Source: Moniliella sp. 'wahieum' (taxonomy: Eukaryota). Taken from it: DNA of 64,000 nt. This document shows positions 14,801-60,059 of this stretch, piece by piece. The DNA lies in assembly GCA_003971905.1 (NCBI GenBank), contig RSEE01000009.1, forward strand, positions 62,001 through 126,000, given 5' to 3'. Below the pieces are notes generated by a model that saw only the letters and a program-made list of their open reading frames with translations, ran no database searches and was not told where the DNA came from. The position numbers and the translations under genes were made by a program. Numbering within the stretch: position 1 is the first letter of the stretch; every line of letters begins with the position of its first letter.

Positions 14801-15252
14801 GGGGTGATGCAGACGTCGGAGCCAAGCGAGGCCCAGGACATGCGCGCCCAAGCTGATGTCTGATCAAGGATGTCCTGCTGCGGACGCGCCTCCTCCGGCA
14901 CGGCGGGGACCGTTGGCAGGGCGCTGGGCCGGCGGGAGACGGCTGGGCGTGGGGGGTAGGGGAGGTGGGAGGCGGCGTCGCGCGGGGAGGCGGGGCGGGA
15001 AGGCGGAGCGCCGGTGGAGAGGCGGTGGGGCAGGAGGTCGGATGGAGTTGGAGTGGGATGCGAGAGGGAGACGCGCGGGGTGCCCCATGGCATGCTGGCG
15101 GCGTCTCTCTGGGGGTGCCGCGCAGCGAGGGGGCGCTGACGCGGTCGTAGGGGCGGCGGTGGCGGGGAGGAGGAAGGGGTCGGCGGGAGGCGCGGGGGGG
15201 GGGCTGGGCGCGGGGGGGGAACGGAAGCGGGCGCAGGGCGGGTGGGGGCCAT
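11887..15252 (-). CDS. Ser/Thr protein kinase, Ran1/Pat1-Ksp1-Sks1-like, with long Pro/Ser-rich extensions
   Basis: LGQGSYASVY, ALKCL, HRDLKPEN, KLTDFGLA, CGSKPYMSYE, DVWSLGVILLNMLFHRSPF. Intron 13738-13811. Start and stop are approximate because of indels. Confidence 0.85.
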
Positions 15253-15824
15253 GGCGGGCGTGAGGAGGAGTCGGCGCCGCCGCCGCTGGCGTGGGCGGCG
15301 TAGGGGGGATGTGCATGGCGGCGCGGTGGCAGCCCAGCCCAGCCCAGCCGACGGCCGAGGCGCTCGGCATGCGCTCCAGCCGCCAGCCCGCCCCGCCTGT
15401 CGGCCCGCCTGGCCCAGCGCCAGTGCCCAGCCGCCCCACATCACCCGCACATCACCCGCAGCCGCCATCACATCACAGCAGCCTGGCGTTAATGTTGCTG
15501 TTGATTAGCCCGAGGGATTGCGCCCAGCACGCAGCTAGCAAGGCACGCGGCGCAGCGCCACTGTCAACCCCTGGCATCGCCTGGCCCCCTGGCGCCCCTC
15601 GCATCCCCCTGGCGCCCGCTGGCTGCCCCCCCGCCACCCGCGCCCAGCACGCGCCCCAGAGCCTGCCTGTGCGGCAGCCACCTTCCCAGTCCGCTGCTTA
15701 TATACCCGCCTGCTGCTCTGCGCCGCCCGCAGCTGGTCGCAGGGCCACGGACAACCATTAACCACCTCCCTCTGTCCCTCTTCTTCCCGCCCACAGAATG
15801 CACTGAGCACCCCCACTCCCATCC

Positions 15825-18800
15825 ATGCCTTGCCCACCACTCTCCCTCTCCCTCCCCCCCCCCCCGCCCGCCGGGGCTCCATCCCCATCCCCACCCCCAT
15901 CCCCACCGCCCACCGCCTCCACCCTCGACCAGACCGCGCCGCGCCACGTCCGCATTGCCCCCGATGCCCGCTTCTCTCTCCAGGTCGGCCACCCGCACAA
16001 CTCGACCGTGCTCGTAGCCACCCAAAACGCCGTCCCCCTCGCCGCTCTTCGCTCGGTCTTTCGTTTTGCCTTCCAGCACGACACGCTTGTTCTCCGCTCC
16101 TCCCCTTGTACGTGGGAGCAGGTGCAGTGTGCTCTTGAGCAGGCGGCCCCAACGCCTCATTCTCCTTCGTCTCCCGTAGCAGCCCAGTACGTCCCCCCCC
16201 CTCTCTCCTTTCTGTTGCTTCTGTGCACCCGTTTCCCCGCTCGGGCCAGCTGACCTCAGTAGCAGGCCCATCGTGGTGCGTCAGCTGGTCATCCACCTCC
16301 TGCGTCCACGGTGGTTGCCATTTATTGAGTGGGCTTCCCCCGGGCTCGTTAGCCTGCACCTTCTCCCCACCTCGGACGCCGACGGACCCAGCGCGGTGCT
16401 CACGCACTGGACCGAACAGGTCCCTGCTACCGCCCATCCTGCACCTGACCCGGCCCCGACCCAAGCTAGAGCGCAACCATGGCGCGCATGGGCCGCGCAA
16501 GTGCCCTTGCTCCTGGCGGGCTGGGTGCTAACCTGGCTCGTCCGCCCGCGACCATCGTATGCGCTCGTGTTCCCCTCCGACCGGCTACTTCCAGCGTCGG
16601 CAGACAGCTGGCCCAACACGCTTGGGCGCGCAGGTACGCGTGGCCATGCGCCGGGCCTGCTCCCGCGCGCCGTGCATCGCGCAGGGGACTGCTGTGTGTG
16701 CTGACATGGGCGTACGCTTACCGCTCGTGCACCCGATCTTGGGCGTATGCCCACGGATGTTCTTCTGTGTCCCGGCGCTGTTCCTCTGCCCAGGCTCTTC
16801 GTCGGTGTGGCGGGTACGGCGCTATGCCAGCGCGATGGGCTTGCCCCTGCCTAAGCGGCTGGGCAACACTTACACACACCGCTCCGTCCACCCCTGTCAA
16901 GACGGCCCCCAGCCCAGCGTCGTCGCGTGCTCTCGGCGCGCCTTGCCTGCCCACACCACGAGAGGAAGGGGGTGAGACAGAGGCAGCCCTCTCGCGTCCT
17001 GCGTCCCAGGCGGCCGAGTCCAAGGAGAACAGGTACAAGACGACGAGGTTCCATTTTCACCGCCTGTGCTCCTCGCCCGACTTGCCAAACAAGGCGCGCT
17101 CGTCCCCCTCGCACAATATTACCTTGACCCTTGCATCCAGTCCGTCAAAATTATCGGCAACTCAAAACAGCACCGCCCTTATCTCCTCGGAAACAGGAAA
17201 GAAGGTCGGGACACGGCCATCGAATCCGATATACCATCTTGCCCCAAGGGGCTGGGAAGAGGCGGGGACGTCTCTTGGCAGATCGGTGAGCGCCAAGAAG
17301 GCCCCCATCGGAGCAGAGTACGCCCCAAGCGGAAGAGGAGGTGAGCGAGACTGACCCTGCCGGGTCAAGGCCTGTGGAATCCAACCGCATTGCTCGTCGC
17401 GACATTCTTCGTCCCTGTCAAGGTACCAGTCGGACGCAATCCCGTGAGCCCCAGTCGGCGACGAAGACTCCGAACGTCTTGCGCCCAGCTCCGGCAACGT
17501 CCAGGGGGTGCACACTGCGTTCGCCACCTTATCCGGGACGGTGTTTGCCCCCGCATCTTCTGTCCCTGGTTCCTACGAGCAAAAAGGCAAGCTTTTTGGC
17601 CCTTGCAACTCGCCCGCCCTGGCAGCAGCTCCAGAGACGTTTGTCCCTGCTGCCAGTGACATGAGCATGCATTTTCTTCCTGCCAGCGGAGCCGGTGGCG
17701 TCCTCTGGCCGTCCTCCGGCGAGAGCGATGATGTGTTTGCTCCGGCGGCCGAGACTGCGACGATGCCGATGGCTCGCGTCGAAACGAAGACTTTACCCAC
17801 CCCCCTTGCCAATCCCCAAACCAAATCGGCACCCGGACGGTCCACTCTACCGTCACACCTGTTGTGCCTACTATGCTACCAAACGTACGCGCGGCACCGT
17901 CGTTTGCACCCGCTGCCGGGCCGGTCGAAGCGCCAAGGAACGGCGCGCATGCTCTTGCTCTTGCTCGCCCAGCCACCCTCTTTGGGCCCGCTTGCCGTCC
18001 CCCTTCGCCGCTGGCCACCGATACGTTTGCGCCTGCCGCAGCCGGGGGGGGGCACTTTCCTTCCTGCCTCGGGCCCCGTGCACAACCATTTTGCCGCCTC
18101 GGCACAGGAGAGCGATGGACCATTTGTCCCGGCCAGTGCTGGTGTATCGGACGCCGTCGATCATCGTCCGCCTCCAATCGGTGTTCGTTGCTCACCCGTC
18201 GACGGGCTTGCCCCCCCCGCCCAAGAGGGGGAGACGCGCCGAGCGGGGCAGGCTGCGTTGTTCCGGACCCGCCCTTGCTCCCCACCAGTCCAGAGGGGAC
18301 GTTTGCGCCCGCCGCGTCCGGGTCGCAACCGCAGCAGGACACGTTTTTGCTGCAGGACACATCGCGCGGCACACGCAGGGTGTTCGCTCCAGCTCTTGCC
18401 CGGGGGAAGACCTGGCATCGCTCTTTGCGCCCGCCGCTCACCTCCCGCTGCCAAGGCAAACAGAGAGCACGTTCGTGCCTGCTGGCGCGACGCTTGACCA
18501 CCTGTTTGCCCCCGCCGCTGGGTCAGCTACGAAAGGTGTCGCCCCTTGCGCCTCAGCTGTGGCCCACGCACCTTCTTCTCCTGTTTCGTCCCTGGCGCCG
18601 GTCCGGCACGCGGGATTGGCCCTGGTTCCTACGGCGGAGCCGGCCGAGGCGCGGGACCAGCCCGAGCAAGCTCTTTTCGACCAGGCGCTCAGCCCAGACG
18701 CTGAGCCCACTCAGCACTCGGTCGGTGGGCTGCGGGTGCAGAAGCAGGCTGCTGGCCGCTGACGATGAGCTTGGAGGACAAGAAGGTGACGGTGACGCAG

Positions 18801-19349
18801 CCCGAGCGGTCTGGACCCAGCGAGCAGACGGCGCCGGCGGCCCAGCGTGCCGATGTGATGGTCGCAAGCGTCGAGAAGGAAGCGTTGTCACTGACGTGTC
18901 CCCGCGGCAGGCGAAGGAGGAAGACAACCAAAAGGAGAAAGAGAAGGAGAAGGAGAAGATTACTGGACACCCCCCAGGCCGAGACTGGTCTCGACTCATC
19001 GGTCGCCATCCAATCTCCTGCCACCTCGTCGCCTACCGAAGAAGAAGGTGGCACGCACAGCCCCCTCTCGCCCTCGCCCTCGCCCTCGCCCTCGACGAGG
19101 TTGACCAGCAGGGTGAACTCGCCGGACCTGGGCACGTCCCTGGCGAACGGCAAGCCAGGCAGGCACAGGCTCGGACAGCGTACCTGCCACCCCTTCCTCT
19201 CGCCTGCGGGAGCGGGCGGTGGACCACCCCCTCTCCACCGCTGGCCCACCACCGGTGCTCACGGGGCTCAGCCGGTCCTCCAAAAAGGGCAAGAGCAAGT
19301 CCCGCTCCGGGCGGGGGAGCAAGAGTGGCGCGGACGCGGCAAGCGCTAA
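15825..19349 (+). CDS. Hypothetical protein with N-terminal globular-looking region and C-terminal low-complexity region carrying about 14 F-x-P-A motifs
   Basis: TATATA at about 15699; intron 16187-16265 (GTACGT...GCTGAC...CAG); chained ORFs across frames; recurring FAPAA/FVPAS/FLPASG at 17540-18520. May be two genes. Confidence 0.55.
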
Positions 19350-22300
19350 GCGCTAAGCGCTAAGCGTTAACCCACCGCCGGTTCGTTGGGACGTGTGCTT
19401 AGCTGCTTCCTTTCTTGCCTTAGGGGGGGAAGGGTGTGCACCCCAGTTTCGCCCAACTCAATGGGGTTTTCTTCCTTCGTTCTTGTGGAACTGGATCTCT
19501 TTCCTCTTTCCTCGTTCCTGTTTCGTCTTTCGTCTTTCCTACTACCCTCCCTACTTCAAGTACCCCTATAGATCGTCCCCCCCTGACCGGCCTGAGCCCT
19601 GCTACCCTCGCTGTCTATTCCCATCCACACATGGCCACCATGTCCTCTCTCGCTTGCGTTGTCTCCCTCGCCCGCGCTGGCCGAGGAGCCACCCGGATGG
19701 GGGCGGCGCCCCCCTCGCTTGAAGCACTGTAGACAATGAGGCCTGAGGCAGATGCGCCGTTGCGCCATTGGGTCGCGGGGGGGAGTAGTAGTAGCTGTAC
19801 ACGCCCTAGTTACTAGTTCGTACGCAGTGGACAATAGTGGCGCCACGGCCTGCCCCACTCAGTGGACTCAGTAACTCAAGCTAGTACTCAAGTCTCTGGT
19901 CACTATATATAGTCGCTGTGACTAGTAGTCACTTGCTTGTCCTGAGCCTGAGCCTGAGCCTGAGCTCGCCCATTCTCACGCGCCACGCTTGATCTGCTGT
20001 GCAGTCGCGCCTCGAGCTCCTGCCGCGGGCTCACATGCACATAACGCGGATTGCGTCACGCCTGACAGCGTCACGCGCGTGGCTGGGCTGGCATGCTGCG
20101 CTCCCCGTGAGGCCCTGAGGCGTGCGGCTCAGGTGTGTCGTGTGACGCTGATGACGGGCGCCTAACGAGCCTGGCGCCGCCTGGCCTCCTGGCTAGGTGG
20201 GGCAAGATCTACGGTGTAGGGTGTAGGATATAGGATGTGAGATGGGGTGCCGGATGGGCGGCGTGGGCGCGCCCAAGGCCAGGCACTCTGGATTGGTGGT
20301 TAGTACTGAGTAGCGGAGGCGCCAGCCTCGGGGCGTGTGGGGCGAGGCGGCGGTGGCGTGCTTCGGTGCGGGGGAGTAGGGTGTAGGGGTGGCCAGGGGA
20401 GCCGGTGAGAGATGAGATCGATGAGATGAGACGGGAGATCCATGGGAGATGGGAGGGGGGGGCGAAACGTAAACGCGCCACGTAATCGATAATCCGCCCG
20501 ACGCGGCGCCGCGTTGGCTTGGCCCTGCCTCCCCTGGGATCGCCGGCCGAGGTGCCGTGCCGTGCTAGATACCTGTACCGCGTACGGCGCAACGCCTAAC
20601 GCCTGCCTGGCGAAACCCGGCTCAACCCCAGGCGCCTGACACGCCAGCATCGAATATCGACATGCAACATCCCACATTCTATCCCGGCCGCGCCGAACGC
20701 GCCCCTCTGCCCTCCGTCCTCCGTGGCCTCGGCGCGTCGTGGCCGGGACGTTCGCGGGGGCGGAAGCGGTGCGTGTTACCAACTAAGGCGGAGCGCGGAG
20801 CTGCGTGGTGTGTGTGGGGTTAACGTTTAACGGTTAACGTTTAACGCTAACGCTGGCAGGGTAGAGTGGAGTGAGCCACTGGGCAGCTAGACAATCCAGT
20901 CGGCCTTGGGCCCTGGGTGGTAGGGTTAGACGGCGGTCCTGGTGCTTGCCCACCTGTAGCGAAAACAAGCGCCGCCCCCGCATTAGCTTGTGAGAACGAG
21001 GCGCATAGGCATGCGCCCAGTCTTCTTGATCGTCCGACCCAGTCGGCCTGCCAAGCTACAAGCTACATCCATTGGAGGCAAGGCACCCGGCACCATGCCA
21101 CCCGCAGCAGTGTCTATACAGGTGGTGGTGCACAGCTGTGTGGAAGGCTATGATGGGGGTGTGCTTGGGCCATCTGCTTCACCTGCAGCATCTCCGGGGT
21201 GCGCCACACAGCCATGGAAATAGTCTCGAGGAGGATTATCGATTAGGAGGAGAACTAGTAAAATGGGTGCCGTGCTGACCTGGTCACTAGCACTAGTCAC
21301 CGGCAGCATGTGTGACACGTGTGGATGCATGATCGATGATCTCTGACCCAGATGACGGGTGGGCTGACCAATCGCGGGGCGCCGCGGAGTCGAGCAGGGC
21401 GTTGTCATCGATCATCGATCCTCGGCGCTTGGACGGAGGTTAGATTTGGATCATGGAGTTCGATCAGAGAGACGGACCGCCTTTTTTTTACCGTTTTGAC
21501 CTTTCCCAGGGAGGTGACTGGTGTCGGCCGCCTTGGGAGATCGGACGGGCCGCGCTCCATGCTCCAGCTTGAGCGCAATCGCGTACTCCACGTTGCCTGT
21601 TGCACCTTGTTCGGATTGTCCAGGTGGGTGTGGGCTGTTTGGCGTTAGCTGCTACCGTTACCTGTTACCGCTTACCGCTTACCTGTTCCTTCTTACGCGG
21701 GCCGCTTCTACGACCAAATTCGAACCCGATCCAATTGTCGTTTAACATTTGACCCCCCGGCCCAAGAAGCGTTGGGGCGCTGGCCCCCTTCCGTCCGTTC
21801 CCAGCACACGATTGCACCTTTCGTGGCAACAATGGGAGATGATCGATGATCGATGACCGGTTACGCGTTATACGCGTTACGCGTTCTGCGTTACGGCACC
21901 GGTCAGGCGGTCAGGTCCAACTGAAGACTCATGGTCAACCACCGAAGACCAGTGACTATAATAGTGCGAGTGCGAGTGCGAGTGATCATTCTTCAAGCGG
22001 TGTAAGCTGGTAATACAAATGGGCGGCACTACAGTAGGTATACAAGGTACAATGCAACGCTCGTGAGAAGCCGAAGCCCGTGACCCAACGCCCCAACCCA
22101 GGCGAGACCGATTCGGGCCGCAGGCGTCAGCGGGGAACGGGGACGCGGGACCTGGGAAGCTGGAAGCCAAAAGGGGAAGAAAGAAAGGAAAAGAAGAGAA
22201 AAGAAAGAAAAGAGAGCACACGCTTGGCAACGAATCGAGGAAAGAACGATGGGATGGGTCGGGGTCTTGGATCTTGTGCCCCACGTTCACGTTGCACTTT

Positions 22301-30741: not shown

Positions 30742-30944
30742 GAGGAACGGATGGTGGTGGTGGTGAGGAGGGGATAAGGGTGGCGGCGCCCAGCCAGGCC
30801 CAGCCAGGAGGCGTTCAACGTGGCCCCCGTCTTACGTCAGCCGAACCTGACCGATTGCAACACTGCTTAGGGTTAGGCAGCCCGACCGCGCACGGACGCC
30901 TGCAGAGACAGCAGCTTGTGGGCCGCACTCCTGCTGCCGGCTCA

Positions 30945-44758: not shown

Positions 44759-47474
44759 TCATCGAATCCATGGGTGTTTCCGAGATGTTGCTACGCGGTC
44801 GCCAGGGCGGGGACGACCATGGCTGCTCAGAGGGATGAAGTACAATGATCTCGAGGGAGACAATGCGATGCCCAACGTAGAAATGGGATATTGAAGCGAG
44901 GCGGAGAGTTCATCCGATCGTCGTATCTCCCTCCTCATCGGGGCGGTAGGATGACACAGTGGACGCCTTGGTCCCAGTCTCATCCGAAGAGGAGCATGAG
45001 GAGGACATTGCCATCGTAGGAGGCGCCGATGGCCAGTCACACGGACATGGTGACCTGGCATTATCCATCGACGCTAGGGCACTGGAATCGGAGATGGCAA
45101 GGCTAGCTACTGGGGCAGCACTAATGCTCCCCCTGGGGGGGCGCATTGGGGATGAATCCGTCCCCTCGCATTGAACCAGGCATAGGGCGGGGAGCTGGAC
45201 AGTAACCCGTTATTCGGAAGGGAGGCGGCATGATTGGATTGACTTGGTTGCGTCGTCCCTCTCCTGCCTCGAGTGGCTTGCCTGTTAACCCTCCACTGTG
45301 CGAAAGGGGTTGAAGCATCGCTTGTGAAGGGCCGGGCGAAATGTGCTGTCCCTTACCCAACCCACGAGCCATGGCCTCAAACGCAAACGAACCACCTACA
45401 CCACTGGCACCTCGGTGACGCTGGGGAGGGGAGAGCGGAAGGCCTAGGGAAACCCCACCACTGAGACCACCGTTGGGGTTGCGTGGCCATCTCCTGGATC
45501 GCGGTGGGTCGGGGGCGAGAGAAGAGCATCCTCCCTTTCTTGGCATAGATCCTCAATCAAAGAGCTGGCTGATTGCGAGCGATTAGAGAGGATCTTTGTC
45601 GCACGGAAAAACTCGCCTCGAATAGTGTAGAGCCCATCCTTGGTGACAGGACGGGAAACGTTGATGTTCTGCGCAAACGGATCTTGAATGCAGAGCTCCC
45701 CAGTAAAGTTAATGTCATCTTTCGGGAACGTTCCATGGGGTGTCCTGATACTAAGCACATCGTGAGCGTAAGCAAACTCTTTGCTAAAGAAAGCAAAGAA
45801 GCCCATCAGGAGGCTGGCCACGTTCTCCCGGTTGTGTGAGCGCCACTCAGACCGGACCCGAGCAATGTCGTCGTAAAGTACACATCGTGCCCCTGGAGAG
45901 TGTGGGTTATTGATCGGGGCGACAGGTCCATGTGCTGCAGGTTAGGAAGAACAGGAGGATGCTTGATGTGCATCAGATAGTAGAGCGCCATGAGAGTATA
46001 CCCGTACGACGAGAGGGTGCCAGTGTACGGAGAGTTGAGTTTTCGCCGCTTTGCCCATACCTTGAGGAAAAGCACTAGCGTCCTTACCCTGGGAGGGTCG
46101 ACCATGGCGTAGCTGAGCAACAGACGCGTGTTCTCCAACGCCAGTCGGTTCTCAAACCCAATATCGCATGAAAGTTCGTAGGGCTGTGTGGCCGAGGCAG
46201 CTACAGAGGGGTTAGCGTACATACCCAAGTGGGGGCAAGGTAGGGCGTACGTTTGTGGATTTTGATGATTGGGATCCGAGCCTGCGGAAGGGGCATGACG
46301 TTGAAATCGGTCTGGTCGCGAATAAGGTGCGCAAATTGTTCTACCAGCTCCCTGGCTCGTGCGGCAGAGAGGGGTGGAACATCAGTGCCTGGAGGTGCAG
46401 GAGGATGGGCATCTCCTTGTTCATGGGCGTCCGGGTGAGCGACTGCGTCCGATATAAGGCAGCACAAATCCATGTCCGAGTTGCGTAGAGCAAAGCCGTT
46501 GGCCATGGAGCCAAAGGCGAGCAACGAAGCATGTGGGTCGATCTGCTGCGCGAGACGTTGCAACCGTCTTCGCAGGGCCTCCTTAATTCGATACTCCTCC
46601 TCGGTAGGTAGGAGGGGTGAGAGAAAGGAAACGATCGCGCGAGTCAGGTCGACTTGGTGCTGTTCGAGAGCAGCATGAAATCGTCCGCCAGAACGGTGAT
46701 TGTATCCTGCCGTGCGCGGGATGGGGATGGCCCCCTGCTCATTCCCGCGACTGGAGACCGGAGAGGGGTGCACCGGGAATACCGGCCATGGGCCCCCACC
46801 ATGGGTCGGGCAGTGGGCGGGAGGGGAGAGGGGGGAGACGGACATGGGAGGACGATGCTGGGGGAGCGGTGGCGAAGCTCTCGCCCGAGTCGGACACGTC
46901 AGAGTGGGCGGATGACGAGGGGGCGCTGCTGCGGGTGTGGCGTCCGACAAGGCAGGTGACGTGGCGGAGGGCGAGTAGTAAGAAGCTGGGCCGCTGGTGC
47001 AGGTGGCGGTGAAGAGGCCATTGCGGAGAGCAGGGATCAGGCGGGAGCGCGACTCGCGGGGGGTGGCCCAGGCTGACAGCGCCGCACACCACCGGCAGAT
47101 GTTCCAGGCGGCAGGGGCAGGGGGGAGGGAGATGGGGGGGATGGATAAGGAAATGACGATGGAGATGGTGACGACGATGGGGATGGGGATGGAGATGGAG
47201 ATGGAGATGGAGATGGAGATGGAGATGGAGATGGAGATGGAGATGGAGATGGGGTGGGATGGGAGGTGCCAGAGGTGGCGTTGGGCCGCAGCACGTCCAG
47301 GTGGTTCCTGCCTGGGCCACATGGGGGCTGGGCTGCTGGGTTGTAAAAGCCACTGCATGCAATGCAATGAGCCACATGCATACGTAAGCAGCGCCACGCC
47401 CCCTTTGGGCCGGTGGCCTCCGTCTGCTGCTTTTGCATCGCCACGCAGCGCACCGCCGATGGGTATCCATGCAT
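44759..47474 (-). CDS. Cid1-family non-canonical poly(A)/poly(U) polymerase
   Basis: FGSMANGFALRNSDMDLCC (hG[S]...DhD), ARIPIIK, CDIGFENRLALENTRLL, KVWAKRRKLNSPYTGTLSSYGY, CIQDPF. Low-complexity N-terminus; ends approximate. Confidence 0.9.
47176..47251. repeat. Hexamer repeat (GATGGA/GATGGG)n in the 5' part of the Cid1-like gene
   Basis: About 12 units; probably encodes (PS)n or (HL)n on the minus strand. Confidence 0.9.
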
Positions 47475-47699
47475 TCGCACGCCTCCCGCAAGCACAGCCC
47501 CCGACGCTATGCCAGCCACCTCAGCAGCTCCGCCAGCACCCGCACCAGCAGCCCCACTGGCGCCCACACAGCGCCAGTGCGTGTGTTCCCAGCGCATCTA
47601 GCCCCATTCCCCCCTGGAGAACGCCCACTGCCGTAACGCGTGTCCCGTCCGCTGAGCCATCCCCACTCACGCTGGGTCCCCCAGTCACCGACGCTGTCT

Positions 47700-49864
47700 T
47701 CCTAGAGACGGATTGAAGCGAGTGCACCATCGTTTCCAATGGAGGTCCCACCAGGTTGGGCGTGCTGCACCACACCCCTAGCACAAGGAGCAGCCCCATC
47801 AGCCTCACAGTCCGCCCGTTGCCAGATAACCATCCCGCCATGTGCAGTGCACTGTCCTGGCGCAGGGTTATCCTCTGTTCCACCGCAAGGGGGAGAGATA
47901 CCACCCCGTTTTGTTCAGAGTGAGAAAGCTCTTGTCGACCGGATCGACACACATCCGCATGCTGCCCATCGTCCTCACGTCGCCATGAGTGGTGATACGT
48001 ACCCCCTCCACCGGAAGCGAAAGCATAGGCAAATGCACCTCCTTGTCGGGGATAAATTGCCACTGAAACACAACTTCTTGCGTGTGCGGTGGGAGTGAGA
48101 GAGGGTTAGTTCGACCTTGCCTTCATTGAGGGGGATCGAACTCCGGATCCCCATGGCCGTGAACGTGACATTATCACCGTTAAGGAAAGTGAGAGTAATT
48201 CCGGGCCCATAGGGCGCAGGAAGAGGAAGCTGAAGCTTCAACGTCCCTTTTCCGCGGCGGGAGAAACAAGTAGTTCCACTTCGATGCCCGGGATGACCCA
48301 TTCTGACTTGTCCCCTAATGGGGGAAGGGAACAATTCAGTCCCTCTACAGGAGGTAAGTACTTGGGCTCCGTCCAAGCGCAGCGGTGGCTGTGCATCAAT
48401 GGTCACTGACGGAACAGGGCCCATTCCACACGCCTCCACTTGCGGGAGAGAGAGGCCCATCTGGCCGTTCGGGGCGATCATAGGGAGCAGCTGCATTTCA
48501 CCAACAAGTTGTACCGTCACCTGTTTTGGCGGAGGAAATAGATGCGCCCCGACCACGAGTGGGTCGAGGAGGAGTTCACATCGGTCGCTTTTCACTGATT
48601 GCCCAGGTAAAAAGATGACTTGCCATTTCCTTCAAGACTGTCAACCAGAGTGAGAGCATTGGACCGGTCTCGCTCCATGTGGGAGGAAGAGGAGAGGATG
48701 AGAAGGCTTCTCCCTTCATGTGAGAGGCGTCCGTGCCTTCCTTGGTTTTGAAAGACGAGATATGAAGTATGCGCTCTCCATCACAAGAGAACGAGAGGGC
48801 AGCACTGTATAGGTCAGCATGGAATTGTAGGTAAGACGTCAAAATGGACATACTTAAGACGAGCGGCAGGAGCCATGACCGGCAAGTGCAAGCCACCAAC
48901 CACAAGATCGAGACTGAATGCCACGCGGGACCAAGGCCACATAGTAGGCGGTAAGAGAGACACTTGCATTCGAGCCACCTGCACATGGTCCACTCGAAAC
49001 TGGGGGGCTTCCCAGGCGGGGTCCTAATATGGTCCCCAGTGAACCTGAATGGGGTCAGAACCTGGGGCAAGCACGCCTTGAGCTATTACCCCCCCTTTCG
49101 AGGGGTCGGGCAAAGAAAACGTTCCTCCTCTATATGATCAACTTGTGGGTTGACCTTCATCAGCACTTCGTTCCGGCCTTGGACGAGCGGGTAATCGAAG
49201 AGGATGCAGTGATCGGATCAAAGTGGACACTGCATGGAGGCGTGGAAGATGGAGAAGTAGGGATCGTGCGGTGGGGTGAGAAGATAGGCGATCCGGGCAT
49301 GAAATGTAATATGGAATGTCCTCGTTTTTTTTCCTCTCGTCCTTTGCTCAGGGGGATGTGAAGAAGAAACCGCGTCTGATGTGCAGGTGAGATGGGCTCG
49401 AGAACGCATGTTGGACGACGGGGTGGAAAGGGATTGGGTCCTAGTCGAGAGGGGAGGGAGATGCACCACCTGGGATCACGCATCTTCATTGTCACGTGCG
49501 CTGGAATGGACAGGAGAGAAAAAATTCGCCCTCAAAGGAAGCGATGGGCGCAGGCGGAGAGAGAGCAGCACGTAGTCCGCTCGGCGCCAGGAGCGGCAAT
49601 GGACGCGAGACTCTGCTCTTGGGCGCATCTGGCGGCAGGGCCCAAGGAATGAGAGGGAAGATGGGGGCAGGGCGGCGGCCAGAAGGCAGCGCCAATGAAG
49701 AGAAGGTGGGAGATAATGTGCGTCCGGAACTGCGTGTGTGGCGCCTTCGTGGCGACGTCATTCGAGAATTGGCGGCGGCGATGCTGGCGGTGAGGGTGGC
49801 AGTGGCCGCAAACTCTGCTTCGTGCCTGTTTCGCCGACTGGACGAGGGTGATGCATGATGCATG
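47700..49864 (-). CDS. Hypothetical protein (chained frameshifted ORFs)
   Basis: Consecutive minus-strand ORFs 49492-49893, 48576-49070, 47975-48595 and 47868-48071 with protein-like composition and a short hydrophobic stretch near the C-terminus. No motif recognised. Confidence 0.4.
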
Positions 49865-50661
49865 TGCATGGTGGACCCAAGGACCCAAAGCACCCCCCTG
49901 TGCTGTGGTGCTAGCAGCAGTCACGTGACAAGCTGTCGCAGTGACTGTCACCACTCCGACTGCGTTGCTGGGTCCCAGTAGGCTGAGCAGCGCTGAGCCG
50001 CTGAGCCGCCACGTGACTGCATCACACGGGGCGCCACATTTCATTGTTTCATGCGTACACTTCCGAGCTTGCTGCTTTCCGTGCGGTTATATCGATTACC
50101 CATACCCCGGTCCTCCGTCCTGACATGCACACCATACAGGCGGTCGTGCCGCCCCGATCCACGGGAGTGGCTTCAGGACTCGTAGCTGCTCCTCCTAAAT
50201 CCCTTCCAGCTTCCGGAGAACCACAAAAAGATGTATACTCCAATCAAAACTCTTATATATATTCTTTTCTCCCTCTCTCGTCCAACAGTGATTCAAGCTT
50301 CTTGCCTACCCTCTCCATCATCTGCATCATCACTTTCGTCTGGATCAGACCCATATGGTTCCGCATAGTCATCCTGTTGACTGGTCCCTGGTTTATTCTA
50401 GACCCTGTTTTCCCCCTTTGCCTATCCTTTCTCCCATCTCCATCTCCTGTATATATTAGTCTGCGAAGGGTAGAAGCATGTTATGTCTGACGTATTAGTG
50501 TGTCACTCTGTTCACATATCGACGACGTTGATCTCGACAAACCCGACTGAGCCTTTTCTCGACGATAAAGATTGTTGAACGTAGTGTACTATAACAGAGA
50601 CAATATATCCTAACGGAATGTGCTTGTCAGATATCATGTCTGGTCCCTAGGTTATAAGACC

Positions 50662-50990
50662 TGTTGTAATATAGGAATGGCTGACCAATGAATATTGAAT
50701 TGCTCTCTCTCTTACTAAGAAACAGTGAGACACATGGTAAGGAAGATGAGACCTGAGATGCCTATATCACGGCTTGCATGCAACACCGACATGGATGGAG
50801 GCATGTGTATCTCAAGGCGCAGATAGGTACAGTTTCTCCCAAATTACTCTATTGCGCTGCACTGTGGACGCAAGACGCATCAACGCCGACGCATTATTAA
50901 AACATTTTTGTATCCTATGGAGGCATTCGGCCACCCTCCAAAACAAGCTCCGGATATAACTCTTTCCCGACCTTCGTGGTCCCCAAATCC
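50662..50990 (+). repeat. Left copy of a diverged ~330-bp inverted repeat pair (LTR-like or long TIR)
   Basis: Aligns in reverse complement to 57102-57624, e.g. GCATGTGTATCTCAAGGCGCAGATAGGTACAGTTTCTCCCAAATTA and CAAGCTCCGGATATAACTCTTT. Both copies start TGTTGTAATA. Confidence 0.9.
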
Positions 50991-51893
50991 AAGCTTATTA
51001 TGGTGCCCGCTCCTCTGTAGGTCTCCTCGACGGGCAACACTAGAAAGAGGGAATACTGGCAAAATGTCAAAACTCAATACAGCGTTTTCGTATCTCTCTC
51101 TTCCGAGAAGAGAGTTAGTCCGTGGGGGGTGGTTAAGGACTAATCCCAATAAAGATCCACTGCCACACTTGTGATCGTGGCCTGCTTCGTGGTGGGACAT
51201 CGGCTTCAGCCTTTTTTGAAAGAGGGTGTTGATAATCCGCGCAAGGCATACTACCCGTGTGTGGTCATCAGGTTGACGGTGAAGAATGAGGTATGAAGTG
51301 GAGTGTTTCCAACCTCTGTCTCTGCTTGTAACAGTCGGGGCTAGACAAGGGAGACCAAGGTCTTGTCAGAGACAGGGGGGATGGCAAGATAGTCCGTGGG
51401 AGGAACAGAAGGCATCGGAGAACAGAGGCAAAGGGGACAGAGAAGAACAAGATACACGGGATGCAGATGTGGATATCGGAGCGAGCTTAGTCATTCGGTG
51501 ACACTGCTCCTCTTCAGTGATAAGAGCTGCACTCAGGTTCGGGTTATCGGTTACCGGGCAAGAGAGGTTTTGATGCGCGAGAGTCGCTGTATGATCCTTT
51601 TGTAGATGAGTGTGCAACAGAGATTCACGAATACTAATAAGCACCTCTCTTTCTACGTTACGGTCCGTGGCTTGTGTGGGTCGCGTGTGTTGAACAAAAG
51701 AATCCGTTTCTACGTGTTGAGCAAAGGACGAAGATAGGGTGTGATGAAGGAGGAGATTGGGGAAGTGGTTCTGGTGAGAGTACAGAGGAGGCTATGAGAA
51801 GAAGGGTAGGTCCACGGGCGCTGGTGAAAATTAATATTTTGCTTAGATGACCACATCACCCAAAATGAGTAAATTTTTACGAATATTACCTTG

Positions 51894-52062
51894 GCACTTT
51901 GGCCACATGAGGTTAAGCGCTTTGGCCCAAGAGATCAAGCGCTTTGGCCACATGAGATCAAGCGCTTTGACCACATGAGATCAAGCGCTTTGGCCACATG
52001 CGTTCAATGGCTTTGGCCACATGCGCTCAAGCGCTTAGCCCAAATGCGCCCAAACGCTTAGC
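51894..52062. repeat. Subterminal tandem array, 23-bp unit GCGCTTTGGCCACATGAGATCAA x~7
   Basis: Seven recognisable units, degenerating rightwards, starting about 80 bp inside the left terminus. Confidence 0.92.
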
Positions 52063-52199
52063 TGTTGATTGGATGCGTGCTTGTAGGCTTTCTAACCGGC
52101 TGGTTGGATGGGGCTGGCATCGATCCAGAACTACTAGATTTATAGGCAGGGTAGGTATTTTTTAGGTGTAGAATGCATTCGAAGATCGCTGGGAAGCGA

Positions 52200-53200
52200 T
52201 GACACGGCAACCACTGTTAGGTGTGACGTCAGACGGAAGCACCACAACGTAGTAGAGCAGCGAGCGGTTCAAAAAGTGGCAGGTTAGTGTGAGGGGAGTG
52301 TGCACTAGGGAGACGCTGGCCAAGTCAGCAGCAGCATAGGGTTAGCGAGAGACACAGAAAATGTGCGACGGACTCACGGGTCAGGCGATGAAGACGGCCA
52401 GTAGCGAGGGCAAGCGGGATGAAGTCGGAATGTACACTGATAGGGCGAACAAGGTTAGGAACAGCGTTGGCATATAACAGAAGGGACTTACGACCGCGAA
52501 ACAGGTCAGGTGAGTTGAGGCGAGCAAGGCGAGATGAACCAACCGTGGGATTCCGTGCATGCAGCAGCTGGGCAGACAGTGTCAGTGGGCAGGATATAAC
52601 TTCAAGCGCGAAGTACGGGGGACGTACGATAGCAAAAGGCAGACCAGCCAAGCGAGAGAACCACAGTCGAGTCAAAAAGTGAGAAGACGGACAAGGGTGG
52701 GCCGAAGGCGAGCGAAACGGTGCATGCACGTCACGCATGCGACCCACAAGGTCAGCAGAAGTGAGGGGAATGCGGAGGAAGCGGGCACGTACGATGACAC
52801 TGCGGACCAGAGGTGAAACGAGGGCAAGATGACCCGCGAGGGGGAGTCTGTGTAGGCGGGGTCAGCAACAGAGCTCTGGCGGGCAAAAGAACACGTACGA
52901 CAAAAGCAATGCAGACAGTGAGAGGGGGACGGGGCGAGAGGCAGAGGGGGCGTCCAACAGCGATACTGACGAGGCGAGGAGGACGGAGTGTGGCGGGAGA
53001 GGTGCAAGCAGCAACGATGGTGATATTGATGGCCAGGGGAAGAAGATGGTGCTTTTGCGCCGTGGCACAGAGCACTCTGCGATGTGTTGGCTGCAGAGAT
53101 GGGATACTGGTTGCTACGGGCGCAATGAGAGGGGCGGTGGTGAAGAGACAGGATGCAACCACAGAGGAGCAGGAGGTTAAAAGGAGGCGCGCGTGTGGCG
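52200..53200 (-). ncRNA. Putative multiply spliced, apparently non-coding transcript inside the transposon
   Basis: Four complete short introns with donor, branch and acceptor on the minus strand (52848-52898, 52568-52627, 52437-52491, 52316-52377), plus a fifth donor and branch (52792/52751) with no nearby acceptor. No ATG in the first two exons. Ends not defined. Confidence 0.5.
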
Positions 53201-54342
53201 CAGCCAATCTGTGCGCACAGGCCAATCTGGGCCACGCCAGGGGCCTAGGTAAGCTATAGTATATATGTCTAACGCCTCAACACTAGCGGCCCCCTGCAGC
53301 AGTGTTCGAGGGTCTAATCATCTCAATCAAGAGCGCCATTTTGACTTTGCCTATTTGCGACTTGCTGTGGTACTAGTTGTCTGTTTCGACGGTGACTGGC
53401 TTCATCGAACGCGGCGCACTTGCGGCCTCTCTAGCCCCGAGACTCCAAGGGCTCCCCGAAGGTTGCTGATGCGCGCGTAAGTCAACGACTAGTAGCCTTG
53501 TCCAGTAGCCCTCGTCCTGCTTCCTACCACCAACGCCTATCTCTCGCCCGCAATCGATCGCCTACGCTACTGTCCCAAACGCTTCAGCATCCATTGCGGT
53601 CTCCATAACCGGGTGAATCGCTATACAGGTCACGATTATCCTCACTTGAGCTTTACTAGTGACTAGTGACCTATGGTGTTACATCAAGTGTTACGTCAAG
53701 CTTCAAGTGAATGGGCACCACATGACTTTTTACAAGCTGGGGCGAAGCCCCAGCTGCCCGGGCCGTAGGCCCGGTGGTCGCCTTGTGACTTGTTATGTTC
53801 AACGTTCACGCAAGATGCACCAAAGTGCTTGCGATATACGGTGAGACGAACCGCATCAGTATGGTCTGTGTGTTTCGACCAGGGGCTATCGTCCCTGATC
53901 GAGGTGAAGGAGCTCCGGTGTTGTAACCATTCCATTTAGCTTTTGTGTTGGCTTTGTCCATGATCTCCGCAGCCCTAAGGTATATAGCCTCTGTTGCTCT
54001 TTCATGCTCCCTTGCATTAGGCGTGTCGTTGGCTGGCGTATTCGACCATCATACTGCCAACACTATAGTGCTACCGCATCACCCATCAGGGTGGCCATCT
54101 GGACTGCTCCACTCTCATCTTCAGATAGGGGATCACGAATGTAATACGCCTTGGAAGAGCATCAACGAAGCGGGAGAGCGTGCGTCTCTGGGAGAGGGGG
54201 CAAGTTTTAAGTTAGAGGGGACAAGGGTTAAGGTTAGAGAGGGCCGCGATCGTCTGCCGGACCTGTGACAAAAAAAGCACCCAGCAATCCATATCATATG
54301 TACAACCCATCTCGCCCATAATTTTACCAAGTCGCCACCGCC

Positions 54343-56477
54343 ATGTTTCGACGTCGGCTCACCAAAATGCCGACCGATGGAACGAGCCGCACGCGTGCAC
54401 AATAGGACAGACGCATCTGCTGTACCTTTTCCCGCGGCCTGGTTCACCATGAAGCAGGACGAGAGGTTGCTGTACCAGTTCCCTGCTTGCCCAGTTCGAC
54501 CGATGTCCGGTTTCATGCACTCAAGCACACGAAGGTGCGCAGGTACAGCCAAAACGTGGTGCTGGGTGCGAGGATGGGGGCCAATCACGCCATTGACGAG
54601 GTGGCCGAAGATGCGAGCATGCCCCAGCCACCTGACGCATGCTCGCCTTCCCCTGTGCTTCCCGTGCCTCCTCGCCTGTAGACACTACCATGGCCGAGGA
54701 CGACTTATGCCAGACGTAGCCCAGTGTTTCCTTTGGACCACCCTCAAGAGCCCACGGGCGTGTCCTTTGCCGCCCGCGGGCGCATGACAACCCGCTCGGC
54801 GCCCCGAATGAGCGTGTCGAGCAAATCCGCAACCAAGAGACTGATATTCATCAGCGATCTCAACACGGAGGGTATCCCTGGCGCAGAGGGCACCAATATC
54901 CGAGCTAGGGGTTTGTTGGCTAACCTAAAGACTGGGGTTGGGAAGGATGTGCGCTCTATGCTTGTGGCTCTCCCATTCGCGGCACTCCCCATCCTCGAGA
55001 CCGGAAAAAAGAGGCCAACGATGAGAAGGAGTTCACGTTTCCGGTTCCGCTTTATGACGCTATCGTCGCGGCAGCCGACCTGCATGGTTTGCTTTCCAGG
55101 ACATGGTACCCGGCTGCCGGGCAGGCCAGGGCGCAGTTCATGGTACGTCCCACAGCCTTGGTTGATATACGGGTTTAGACGCTGACATGCCTGTTATGGC
55201 TGGAATAGTACCGGGCGACCCAGACTGCATACCGACTGATCGAACGCCTTTCGAGACTCGGCCCCGACAGCGCCATGGTCGCGACGCGACCGAAGCTCCA
55301 TCTCCTCCTGGCGCATACGTCTGATGCGCTCAAATTGTTCGGCCCTCTCCAGAACACGGACTCTGCCAGATTCGAGGGTCGCGTGAAGCACATCCGTGCG
55401 TCCGTTGCCCATTGCAACTTCCAGAACCTCCCGCGTGACACCTTGTACAACGTCATGGTCGCAGAGAAGATTCTGCACCACTCTTCACCGGGGTACGATG
55501 TGTCTAGTGACGGCTCGGTGGTGGATCGGCCTGGGGCTCCTCCCGGGGTGCTGGAGCAAGGGAAGGAAGAGCCCGACTACAACTCTGATGGCATGGGTTA
55601 GTGCTGGCCCCAGCCAAGAACCAATCCTCGGTGGGTTGCAACAACCTCACCGACGAGGAGCTGGGTCGTTTCCAGTTGGCGGACCGTGTCAAGGTGCGGG
55701 CGCAGTACCTGGTGGGCAAGGCGGCTGTTATCGCTACAGGGGAGATGATCCGTGTGGGGATGAACGTGACGATCGGCCAGAAGTCGGCCGAGTACAGCGC
55801 GTCCGCCGACTTTGTTATTGGCAAAATCCTCCGGATTGGGCGCGATCCGTTGGATGAGAAGGCTGCCTGGGTCGGGTACAGGCCGTACATCATCACGGGT
55901 AGCACGCATCGCTCAGGCTGCCGCATTGTCCGCGAACTCGATGATGGTGATGCTCCTGAAGAGTTTGCCCTATTGACGGTGAGCACCGATGAGTGCTGAA
56001 TCCTCCGGCTGCGTGACGATTGCTCATCAAGTACTGACACTGGGACATTCACCACAGGATGTTGGCAGCGAGGCGCCTCTCCAGCACGCCTGCACCAAGA
56101 AGTGCATGATAGAGCAGGACGGCCAGAAAGTACTGGTGCACAACTACGAGAAGGACCCGATCTCGGGGGAGAACGAGGCGATTGAGTACTTCATCCCGGC
56201 GGCGTCTCATTTTAAAGCCAAGAACGGGAAGCGGCTGGTATTGAACGAATACGCTATGCGAAGTCCACCACACCACAAGCCGCACATGGACTTGAGGATC
56301 AGCTGGAAGTCCCCCAAACTGAGCGCCAACGCGCTGAGCAAAGACGTGGCCCAGAGGATTGCAACGAACGGTGCCATGCACCTGTGGGACAAGCGCGCCA
56401 AGAAGAAAGCACCTGCCGTGGCTGCTGTCGGAGGAGGGGGCAAGAGCGACGACTCTTCGGACAGTGACAGTGATTGA
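54343..56477 (+). pseudogene. CMC-superfamily transposase-like gene apparently lacking its central catalytic region
   Basis: KLHLLLAH...LFGPLQNTDSARFE (H-x4-H before the final E, CMC-type signature), IRARGLLANLKTGVGKDVR, HCNFQNLPRD, LQHACTKKC, LVLNEYAM. Intron 55143-55208. ATG in GCCACCGCCATG context. First two DDE aspartates not found. Confidence 0.7.
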
Positions 56478-57101
56478 TGCGAGAACCAAATGGACATGCA
56501 TTGCGCGATGAGGATGAGTATAGGTTTGGTGGCAGTCGTCAGTCATCAGTAGCCAGGCCACAGGGTGGTGCGCATCCCGGACCCATCAGCCGGAACCTCT
56601 CGAGACGTGAGATCTGAGATGGGGCCATGGGCGGCGCTTTGATATGATGCGAAGCTTCTTTTGCCGGCGAACGAGCCAGGTGACGGATAACTGTCATGCG
56701 TCCCATGCGCAGGGGCATGCCGAAGGGGCGGTTATGGAGTAAGAGGCCAGACGGTGAGGCGTGGGTTGCAGCCCCAAATGCCTGTCGCCACAAGCGTCGG
56801 GTTTCTGCCACCGGCCTCTTCAGCCCCACTCCGCTTATCCAGCCCATCTACCCATTTTCCAATCCCGCCATGACCCATGTTTCAATTTTTCACACCCGCC
56901 CGTGTCCTTGTGTAGCCCTGGGTACTAGGGAACACAGAAGGAACGTTAGGGCGGAGAAGAAGGGGAGCGATGCCAAACACGCAGAATGACATGTGATTGG
57001 GGCATTGTCCTAACAGTAGAGTGTACGTGGCCATCGACACAAAACAGCGCACAAATTCCTTAAGAAAAGTGATGCGTGTTCCACGTTGAGACGTTCAGGG
57101 G

Positions 57102-57624
57102 GGTTTTGGGGACCACGAAGGTCGGAAAAGAGTTATATCCGGAGCTTGTTGGAGGGTGGCCACCGAATGCCCCCTGTCAGAATCACACCGTGATAGGGGG
57201 CTCTTGCCCACTAGGCCCGTATGGGCACTATGGCGTGATTCCTATCAGTTGGGAGATCCTGTGTCCACCTCTCGACTGTGCCTCCTTCCTGAGGAGGTCA
57301 TATACCTCCTCTGCGTCCATAGATGTATGCAATCTATCTGCTTCCCTTCCCCCATCTCCGTCTCCTGACACCCCCATAGGATACAAAAGTATGTGGTCAA
57401 TAATGCGTCGCGCGTTAATGCATAATGCGTCTTGAATCCATAGTGTACCACAATAGAATAATTTGGGAGAAACTGTACCTATCTGCGCCTTGAGATACAC
57501 ATGCTTCCATCCATATCGGTGTTGCATGCAGGCGTGATATCGGCATCTCAGGTCTCATCATCCTTACCATCTGTCTCACTGTTTAGTAAGAGAGGGCCCA
57601 ATTCATTGGTCAGCTATTACAACA
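57102..57624 (-). repeat. Right (inverted) copy of the ~330-bp repeat, interrupted by a solo LTR
   Basis: Reverse complement matches 50662-50990 on both sides of the 57175-57370 insertion. Confidence 0.9.
57175..57370. mobile_element. 196-bp solo LTR (or LTR-like insertion)
   Basis: TGTCAG...CTGACA termini; 5-bp TSD CCCCC (57170-74, 57371-75); the homologous site in the left repeat copy is empty. Confidence 0.88.
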
Positions 57625-58488
57625 CCTAACCCCCGTCTCCCCAATCGACCATCTCTTTCCGTACAGTTGGTGCTGAGGAGGCTGTAATTGATGAAGGGCA
57701 ACGCATCTCTTCCCGACCTTTCCGCGGAGAGGGCCAGTCACGGGCTATTGAGACGGCGTCTTTCCCCAGTGACACATCGGGCACATCCAAACGGCGAGAA
57801 AGCGAAAATCGGAACGAGACATGATACTTAGGGTTGTATTGCCGATGGATGTTTTGTTCTTTGGGCCTCCTCAGCTCCTGCTGGGGGTTGGCTCTTGGAC
57901 ATTGACGCTTGCTTCGTGTCTCGACGCCCTCAGCCCGGCGATTGCAGCGGACGCCATACGCCGGGTCTTCAAACTCCAAGCTTCTCATCGCAACAGTTTC
58001 CCCAGCTTTTCGGCGGCCAAAACACACCAGGGCGGCCACCTTCTTCCTCGGACAGATGACGTCAGGCTGACACCGAAGGACACTCTCCCTGCGCGGTGCG
58101 TATCGGCGACACGTTGTGACCTGTATGTGATGGACTATGTACTTCGTCACTAGCTCGTCACCGGGTCACCAGTCAATGATTTATTGATTATCGATGAATG
58201 ACGCTGAACGTCGAACCCTAGATGGGCACGGACCAGAGGGAGTGGCACGGGGCGAGTGTGGCGCGCTGTCTCATCAACCGCGGCTGACCAATGCTCGCCA
58301 TTGCAGTCGGATGGCATCTCGATCGCGAGTTCGTTTGACTGCCTCCCCAGCATACCCTCCCAGCGCCCACTGGCACGCTGGCCTTGCCCTCGCCGACAGC
58401 ATGCCGACTATTTAAGTCTCGCCTCTCGGTGCCCCTCACCAACGCTCCAAACCCCGCCCCCCACAGCAGCCCGCCTCAGCATCAAAGT

Positions 58489-60059
58489 ATGCCCTCCCAA
58501 GAGGTCTTCAAAGCCGGCCCCGAGAAGGTGGAGTACACCACCTCCAACGGGCGCCCGTACCCGGTGCCTTACGAGGCACAGGGCGTCTCCGCTACCGATG
58601 GTCTTGGCCATCTCTTGGCCCTGCAGGACTTCCACCACATTGACCTCCTCGCCCACTTTGACCGGGAGCGTATCCCCGAGCGTGTTGTGCACGCAAAGGG
58701 TGCTGGTGCCCATGGCTTTTTTGAGGCGACCCATGATATTTCCGACCTTTCGCTTGCCTCTGTCTTCAAGAAGGGCACCAAGTCTCCGGTGACCATGCGA
58801 TTTTCTACAGTGGGAGGCGAGTCGGGCTCCGCTGATACGGCCCGTGACCCGCGTGGGTTTGCCGTTAAGATTCGCACGCAAGAGGGCAACCTTGACTGGG
58901 TCTTTAACAATACTCCTGTCTTCTTTATTCGCGACCCGGCCAAGTTCCCTCACTTCATCCATACGCAAAAGCGCGACCCGCAGACCCATCTTAAAGATGC
59001 CGATATGACCTGGGACTACCTCAGCCAGAACCCGGAAGCGTTCCACCAGCTGATGATTCTCTACTCTGATCGCGGTACTCCGGATGGGTTTACGGATCAG
59101 CATGGCTACTCTGGCCACACGTACAAGTTGGTCAACGATAAGGGCGAGTTTGTCTACGTCCAGATCCATATTCGTGCCCCTGCGTTTAAGACGCTGGACG
59201 GACCTACCGCCGCGCGTTTGGCTGGGGAGAACCCGGATTATGGTATCGAGAAGCTGTTCAACAAGATTGAGGCGGGTGACTACCCCACCTGGAATGTCTT
59301 TATCCAAGTCATGACCCAGGAGCAGGCAGAGAAGTTCCGCTACTCGGTGTTTGACCTGACCAAGGTCTGGCCTCACAAAGGTATGCAATCTCTCGTCCTT
59401 GCCTCGGTTGCCAGCGTAGAAGATTGGAACTGACGACTTTATCCCCTGCAGAGTACCCCCTCCGCCCGATTGGCCAGATTGTGTTGAACAAGAACCCCGA
59501 AAACTACTTTGCAGAGATTGAGCAGGCTGCGTTCTCGCCATCGCACACTGTTCCCGGCTTTGAACCGTCGATGGACCCTGTGTTGCAGAGCCGCCTCTTC
59601 TCGTATCCGGACACTCACCGCCATCGCCTTGGCGTCAACTACCAGCAGATTCCGGTCAATGCCCCGCTGGTCCCTGTGGCCAACTTCCAGCGGGACGGAT
59701 TTATGGCGGTGAATGGCAACCAGGGTGCCCGCCCCAACTACCAATCGACCATTCGCCCGCTGCAGTACACGACCCGTTCGACTGTATCGGTTGCGCACGA
59801 GCAGAAGCTCTTGGGGGGCGTGCACAACTTCCTGTCTCAGGTCAGCGACTTGGACTTTGAGCAGCCCCGGGAGCTATGGACGCGTGTGTTTGATGACACG
59901 GCCAAACAACACTTTATCGACAACGTCTCAGGCCATATTGGCCAGTGCAAGTCGGCCGAGATCAAGCAGCGTACACTCGACGTCTTTGGACGTGTTCACC
60001 CTGACATCCCGGTGCGCATTGCGAAGGCGATCCAGTTTGACTACAAGCCGTCCAAGTGA
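58489..60059 (+). CDS. CAT: Small-subunit monofunctional heme catalase
   Basis: [44 protein letters not shown], heme-ligand RLFSYPDTH. In-frame intron 59381-59451. Confidence 0.97.

Follow-up and report, generated by a model that had tools for sequence, protein, structure and literature searches.

Does the minus strand between positions 53200 and 52300 give rise to a spliced transcript, and what would such a transcript be if it carries no convincing protein? An earlier note on this DNA described an intron-dense, ATG-poor unit hidden inside a transposon, and proposed either a spliced non-coding RNA or a decayed gene. This is still the right pair of options, with splice signals beyond chance and no convincing ORF. 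We examined the question within the whole 64-kb stretch of DNA presented here, called the window below. The window is fungal, and its host is a Ustilaginomycotina-like basidiomycete with no close named relative in the collection searched. This placement is made because of the relatives of the G6PD frame at 10281-11258, the best named of which are 67-68% identical (Thecaphora, Tilletiaria, Violaceomyces and Ustilago), with further assemblies at 78-84%. Other landmarks of the window are HSP90, catalase, a PCI-domain gene, a non-canonical poly(A) polymerase and a copia-type integrase ORF. The copia-type retroelement ORF lies at 5688-7655 on the plus strand, with an integrase core and a retroviral SH3-like domain.

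Data from the minus strand showed all five consensus donors that had been reported within about 600 bp, with GTACGT at 52898, 52792 and 52627, GTAAGT at 52491 and GTGAGT at 52377, and a weaker sixth donor, GTGGGT, at 52747. All five match the U2-type fungal 5' splice site GTRNGT, and each is followed by a branch site, CTGAC or CTAAC, at 32-42 nt, inside the interval of 30-50 nt claimed before. A strict intron scan (GT[AG][ACG]GT ... CTRAY ... YAG, both strands of the 64-kb window) recovered four complete modules, and their CAG acceptors give exactly the junctions first suggested: 52899/52847, 52628/52567, 52492/52436 and 52378/52315 (Table 1). In these four of the five modules, the distance from the start of CTRAY to the last intron base, ending in CAG, is 13-22 nt. 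Only 11 AG dinucleotides occur on the minus strand of 52900-52300; four are the acceptors and two lie inside donors.

The strict scan found 23 modules on the two strands of the window, four of them within 53200-52300, and every other 900-nt stretch contains at most two. Among 5000 dinucleotide-preserving shuffles of 53200-52300, 4530 had no module, 433 had one, 33 had two, four had three and none had four (mean about 0.10 per shuffle), and the six donor hexamers observed were equalled in only 2 of the 5000. Splice signals in this stretch are far above chance. The sole other site with two strict modules in 900 nt is at 48354-48417 and 48559-48606 on the plus strand, where the modules lie 200 nt apart and adjoin or overlap the 5' end of a poly(A)-polymerase-like gene on the minus strand. 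Within this gene's ORF at 46201-47520, a (GATGGA)n microsatellite of about 19 units occupies 47140-47252.

The donor at 52792 is the exception in the array. It has CTGAC at +37 and no acceptor: the next minus-strand AG is at 52601, within the following intron, leaving about 150 nt free of AG after the branch site. It may be what is left of a decayed intron, or it may pair with the acceptor at 52568, giving a 225-nt intron. Exon position -1 is C at all five donors, where the textbook base is G, and the G6PD intron of the window also has C.

Amplification of one intron unit in tandem was considered as the origin of the array and rejected. In a MAFFT alignment of the five units, the only invariant columns were the splice motifs, and pairwise local alignments gave z-scores of -0.71 to +1.88, inside the shuffle range. 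Two short matches share a spacing of 165 nt, and ungapped identity at that offset is 59/165, which is background. Since the units align only at background level, the splice signals are independent, having been kept or built separately. Independent signals are what selection for splicing predicts, whereas recent amplification does not predict them.

The array can be compared with introns of the window that are supported by a reading frame. The G6PD intron at 10136-10258 is 123 nt long with a GTACGT donor, and its junction restores RIDHYLGKE, which we take to be the G6PD active-site motif. The PCI-domain gene has an intron of 56 nt at 39054-38999, and the plus-strand gene neighbouring the array has introns of 66 and 79 nt at 55143-55208 and 55979-56057. 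Gene modelling by longest ORF over-fitted host introns, and it was used solely for the intron that it had in common with the strict scan. The signal style of the array matches that of these frame-supported introns. The description of the introns as host-like stands for the signals, which are of the same kind, and has to be qualified for the lengths, as 51-62 nt is short within a small host sample (56, 66, 79 and 123 nt).

Table 1. Coordinates of features in and around the putative minus-strand unit (positions in the window; a dot marks features given without strand)
Feature	Position	Strand	Remarks
Left inverted-repeat arm of the 6.95-kb segment	50663..50990	.	
Tandem array, 23 bp x ~7	51897..52059	.	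Consensus CTTTGGCCACATGAGATCAAGCG, 85-87% match; directly 3' of the minus-strand unit
Candidate polyadenylation region	52139..52163	-	AAAAAATA ... TATAAA; first A-rich cluster 3' of 53265; putative role
Putative last exon	52164..52315	-	3' end putative
Intron module 5	52316..52377	-	62 nt, GTGAGT, CTAAC +32 and CTGAC +49, CAG
Putative exon 4	52378..52436	-	59 nt
Intron module 4	52437..52491	-	55 nt, GTAAGT, CTAAC +33, CAG
Putative exon 3	52492..52567	-	76 nt, ATG at 52560
Intron module 3	52568..52627	-	60 nt, GTACGT, CTGAC +42, CAG
Putative exon 2	52628..52847	-	220 nt, with donor 52792 and the first ATGs, 52738 and 52725
Fifth donor, acceptor-less	52751..52792	-	GTACGT, CTGAC +37
Intron module 1	52848..52898	-	51 nt, GTACGT, CTGAC +33, CAG
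Putative first exon or leader	52899..53200	-	Pyrimidine-rich, ATG-free; 5' end putative
Two GCCAATCTG copies, CCAAT-box-like	53203..53232	+	18 nt apart, between TATA-like motif and pyrimidine tract; putative function
TATATA	53260..53265	-	Only TATA-like motif 5' of the pyrimidine tract on this strand; putative promoter role
Coding-like 3' half of the orphan gene	55209..56477	+	Host-like codon use, stop at 56477
Right inverted-repeat arm	57102..57623	.	~210-bp insertion relative to the left arm

Outside the splice signals, the stretch is distinguished by its composition. The 901 nt of the minus strand from 53200 to 52300 contain C348, T262, G177 and A114; 52292-53191 is the most strand-skewed 900-nt stretch in the 64 kb, and the exons form its most pyrimidine-rich 900 nt, in agreement with what had been noticed from the letters. 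The observation that the first ~350 nt contain no ATG was also borne out. No ATG occurs in the 346 nt of 53244-52899, where shuffles have 4.46 on average and only 0.3% of 2000 have so few, and over 945 nt there are 5 against 9.95 expected (2.5% of shuffles as low). The offset of the first ATG has P of about 0.012-0.016. The leader is thus poorer in ATG than its composition predicts, in a test that was chosen post hoc. The whole ATG-free gap, from 53321 to 52738 on the minus strand, measures 583 nt and is the fifth longest on either strand of the window. The other four of the five longest lie at 15000-19700, a region with a GC content of 62-74% and long overlapping open frames on both strands that have no Pfam match.

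Possible ends of a transcription unit are found on both sides of the array. The unit is bracketed by the sole TATATA of its strand, at 53265, and the first A-rich cluster, at 52163-52139, and no poly(A)-like motif lies between them. Two CCAAT-box-like elements followed by a TATA-like motif, in this order, would suit a promoter of the plus strand no less than one of the minus strand; therefore the predicted minus-strand start is uncertain. The 23-bp array beyond the 3' end, still inside the 6.95-kb segment described below, could be a protein-binding array.

Coding potential was scored by codon log-odds trained on six Pfam-supported host ORFs. These host ORFs score +0.02 to +0.40 (0 to +0.33 where host ORFs were compared with the spliced ORFs), and the three long minus-strand frames of the region score -0.04 to -0.14. 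When the four strict introns are removed, the first ATG, at 52738, opens 80 codons (codon score -0.27). Splicing from donor 52792 to acceptor 52568 would take out the two ATGs of exon 2, and the first ATG, now at 52560, opens 93 codons ending at the stop at 52162 (codon score -0.26; off-frame -0.33 and -0.39). Enumeration of spliced ORFs with strict and relaxed intron sets gave none better than the frames from ATG 52738. The longest ATG ORF under either splice model has 93 codons, a length equalled or exceeded in 40-55% of 2000 shuffles of the spliced RNA. A homologue search with the unspliced 178-residue frame at 52325-52861 (minus strand) was empty, and Pfam gave no match at E up to 1 to the three long frames of this strand, nor to three shorter ones at E up to 0.05. 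Host-like codon use, above-chance length and, for the unspliced frame, homologues are all missing. The earlier judgement that no convincing spliced ORF emerges is upheld, with at most 93 codons at chance length and a codon score of -0.26. Small pheromone-type ORFs ending in CAAX were sought within 50600-57700, and none was present.

RNA structure is missing as well. Rfam gave 0 matches in 50000-58500 on both strands at E up to 1, and no snoRNA was found within the introns (Rfam 0; introns of 51-62 nt). The four introns fold like their shuffles, with z-scores of +0.87, +0.38, -0.02 and -0.33, and contain no stable hairpins; the acceptor-less segment gave z = -1.98, with 10 of 200 shuffles equally good. 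The spliced RNA (z = +1.45) and the unspliced RNA (z = +1.06; 60 shuffles each) are, if anything, less structured than their shuffles. With Rfam 0, these intron z-scores and z = +1.45 for the spliced RNA, a snoRNA host, a mirtron and a structured RNA were rejected. The suggestion that the transcript might be a small-RNA source receives no help from structure, with four introns at shuffle level and the spliced RNA at z = +1.45. The lack of an Rfam match, hairpins or excess structure is what an ordinary spliced RNA would show, and suits a structured RNA or a small-RNA precursor less well. A telomerase-RNA template was also considered, as the 9-mer CTAACCCTA occurs at 52345 within intron 5, and rejected, three such loci in the window being about the number expected by chance. 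Elsewhere, at 30867-30877 on the minus strand, the 11-mer CCTAACCCTAA amounts to 1.8 telomere repeats (C-strand), of the type that serves as template in telomerase RNA; by a hand estimate, chance alone would put about 0.2 such 11-mers in the window.

The putative unit lies in a 6.95-kb segment flanked by inverted repeats of about 300 bp, whose arms are 86-94% identical: 50696-50923 pairs with 57605-57371 (86%) and 50929-50990 with 57161-57102 (94%). Judged by eye, the similarity reaches about 50650 and 57631. The segment is presumably old, because of this level of identity and the 210-bp indel between the arms. The best candidate for a target-site duplication, the 4-bp ACCT at 50663/57623, is not significant for the number of boundaries tried. 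No transposase was found among the 46 of 75 stop-to-stop ORFs (at least 55 aa) that were scanned against Pfam, no family passing the cut-off, and the 64-kb window contains no further copy of the segment. A metagenome scan with an 18-nt motif common to both arms returned 11 loci, all of them chance matches of 18-25 nt. Hence, of the transposon assumed at the outset, the inverted repeats are there, and a transposase (in those 46 of 75 ORFs), a convincing target-site duplication and a second copy in the window are not; judged from these features, the transposon label is reasonable but unproven for what seems to be an old, single, repeat-bounded segment.

The same segment contains an orphan multi-exon gene on the plus strand (54377-56477) with an acidic Ser/Asp tail. 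The three plus-strand ORFs in its coding-like part have codon log-odds of +0.15 to +0.23. Its two introns given above are clean; a frame change near 55597 has no clean bridging intron, and a frameshift is possible at an A6 run near 55000. These apparent frame breaks mean that the whole segment may be dead. Searches with pieces of the gene gave no homologue for 55983-56477 among the longer proteins searched, one spurious repeat-protein match only for 55209-55601 among 1.84 billion representatives, and nothing under E = 0.09 in the PDB. An Atlas look-up with 55619-55978 reached a best score of 0.87, under the 0.9 level, and gives a lead only. A likeness of the plus-strand protein to KDZ/Plavaka-type transposases was considered and dropped for lack of Pfam support. 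The minus-strand unit points away from this gene, the sole coding-like gene of the segment.

In accordance with these data, several explanations have to be weighed. The region might encode a small orphan protein in a frame starting at 52560 (93 codons) or 52738 (80 codons), on an mRNA whose long 5' UTR contains introns and no ATG; we think this improbable, though to be taken seriously for its ATG-free leader. Such an mRNA would suit a leader whose freedom from ATG exceeds the length predicted from composition, and the 93-codon frame has features of its own: it stays open across introns 4 and 5, which shift the frame, stops just before the A-rich cluster and has a hydrophobic N-terminus (Kyte-Doolittle 9-residue means up to 2.1). 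However, about half of the spliced-RNA shuffles hold an equal or longer ATG ORF, the codon score lies near the off-frame scores and far from host genes, and the unspliced frames have neither a homologue nor a Pfam match. As between the two kinds of RNA, an ATG-depleted leader, as in the 5' UTR of translated mRNA, somewhat favours a small-ORF mRNA over a pure non-coding RNA. It is unlikely that the region is the decayed 5' part of what was once a gene (the element's second gene or a captured host fragment), with signals not yet eroded and no present function. The loss of the acceptor at one of five donors (52792) is expected of a decaying unit and counts against the reading that we prefer; the age of the segment as judged by its arms, the frame breaks of the adjoining plus-strand gene and the missing transposase and second copy point in the same direction. 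On the other side, the exons have no residual coding signal and form the most pyrimidine-skewed stretch, unlike the coding regions of the window, and dead DNA would not retain ATG depletion. Moreover, about 7% change per arm predicts about 4-5 hits in about 65 signal positions, by a rough estimate that assumes identical arms at insertion, whereas one loss is seen.

A chance cluster, or motifs serving another purpose, would need no transcript at all. The sequence TCGTACGT, which reads ACGTACGA with an ACGT core on the plus strand, might represent protein-binding sites 5' of the plus-strand gene, with the intron look being coincidental. This 8-mer is indeed common to three donors (the fourth has TCGTAAGT), and CCAAT and TATA elements in plus-strand order lie downstream of the region. 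Single strict modules may also be false, such as 10143-10050 antisense to G6PD. Lone false modules occur, yet they do not explain a cluster of four. Donor, branch site and acceptor are correctly spaced four times, which 0 of 5000 shuffles achieved, and the pyrimidine-rich 900-nt stretch at 15558-16457 has just one module, so that we give this explanation very little credence. Nearly as doubtful is a more far-reaching proposal, in which the region would be a mobile-element-borne RNA gene and splicing itself the function. The only selected features would then be the array of near-consensus introns and the AUG-free, pyrimidine-rich body, which might mark the transcript as 'well-spliced self' and let it evade spliceosome-coupled RNAi, or might affect the chromatin or expression of the neighbouring element gene.

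The reading that we prefer, held with about even confidence, is that 53200-52300 represents a spliced Pol II transcript on the minus strand that is real or was so until recently, non-coding or with at most a small orphan ORF, in which the introns would be the maintained part. According to this model, a Pol II transcription unit, active now or until recently, would run on the minus strand from near 53200 to near 52150. Its primary transcript would lose four short introns, and perhaps one more that starts at donor 52792, to leave a mature RNA of about 0.7-0.8 kb that is pyrimidine-rich, unstructured and without a conserved protein. Selection would act on the splice signals and leave the exon sequence free. 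In protein-coding genes of the basidiomycete Cryptococcus neoformans, introns add up in raising the amount of transcript, depending on how many there are and where they lie (PMC3744415). Because introns are thus described as boosting RNA cumulatively in a basidiomycete, the likeliest role of the array may be to let an otherwise unremarkable RNA accumulate and be exported. This RNA may act, without coding, as a partner of the orphan plus-strand gene, which lies about 1 kb off between the same inverted repeats. What the sequence shows is the splice signals, their non-random clustering and the lack of coding signal and of RNA structure; that the unit is transcribed and spliced, where its transcript starts and ends, and what it might do are predictions.

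If the unit is transcribed and spliced, it would be an unusually intron-dense RNA gene, with 4-5 introns in 600 nt in a genome whose genes show few, and it would sit in a repeat-bounded, possibly mobile segment. It would then offer a compact natural test of how introns serve an RNA without a protein product, and of whether mobile elements of basidiomycetes use good introns for expression or for avoiding splicing-coupled silencing. If it is silent, it is merely a decaying gene fragment.

Several known systems resemble parts of this picture. Gene fragments are captured by DNA transposons of the Pack-MULE type, and here too exon-intron pieces without an intact ORF lie between long inverted repeats; unlike in Pack-MULEs, nothing similar occurs elsewhere in the window, no coding signal is left in the pieces, and neither a MULE transposase, among the ORFs scanned, nor a duplication of 9 bp was found. 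In maize En/Spm, the transposase transcript has an untranslated leader that lacks a start codon and contains introns. The present unit would likewise be an element-borne leader free of start codons with introns after it, but no transposase was found here among the ORFs scanned, and the unit does not point towards the coding-like gene of the segment but in the other direction. Genes of the UHG/GAS5 type are snoRNA hosts whose function resides in intron-borne snoRNAs, with selection on introns and not on exons. They share with our unit a multi-intron Pol II transcript, a pyrimidine-rich start, exons without a conserved ORF and selection on the intron side, all putative here, whereas the introns here are just 51-62 nt long and have no Rfam match on either strand.

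Two further comparisons come from Cryptococcus. Intron-dependent accumulation in C. neoformans (PMC3744415) concerns a basidiomycete and would account for introns in a protein-less RNA, although it is described there for protein-coding genes. In the same genus, transposon transcripts trigger siRNA production via stalled spliceosomes (Dumesic et al. 2013, as cited in PMC6643885). This system ties mobile-element introns to genome defence in a basidiomycete, as might apply here. The transcripts targeted by siRNA there reportedly have suboptimal, poorly spliced introns. Our introns are near-consensus, which is the opposite expectation, and a 'well-spliced self' signal, if it exists, would mirror the trigger that stalled spliceosomes provide there.
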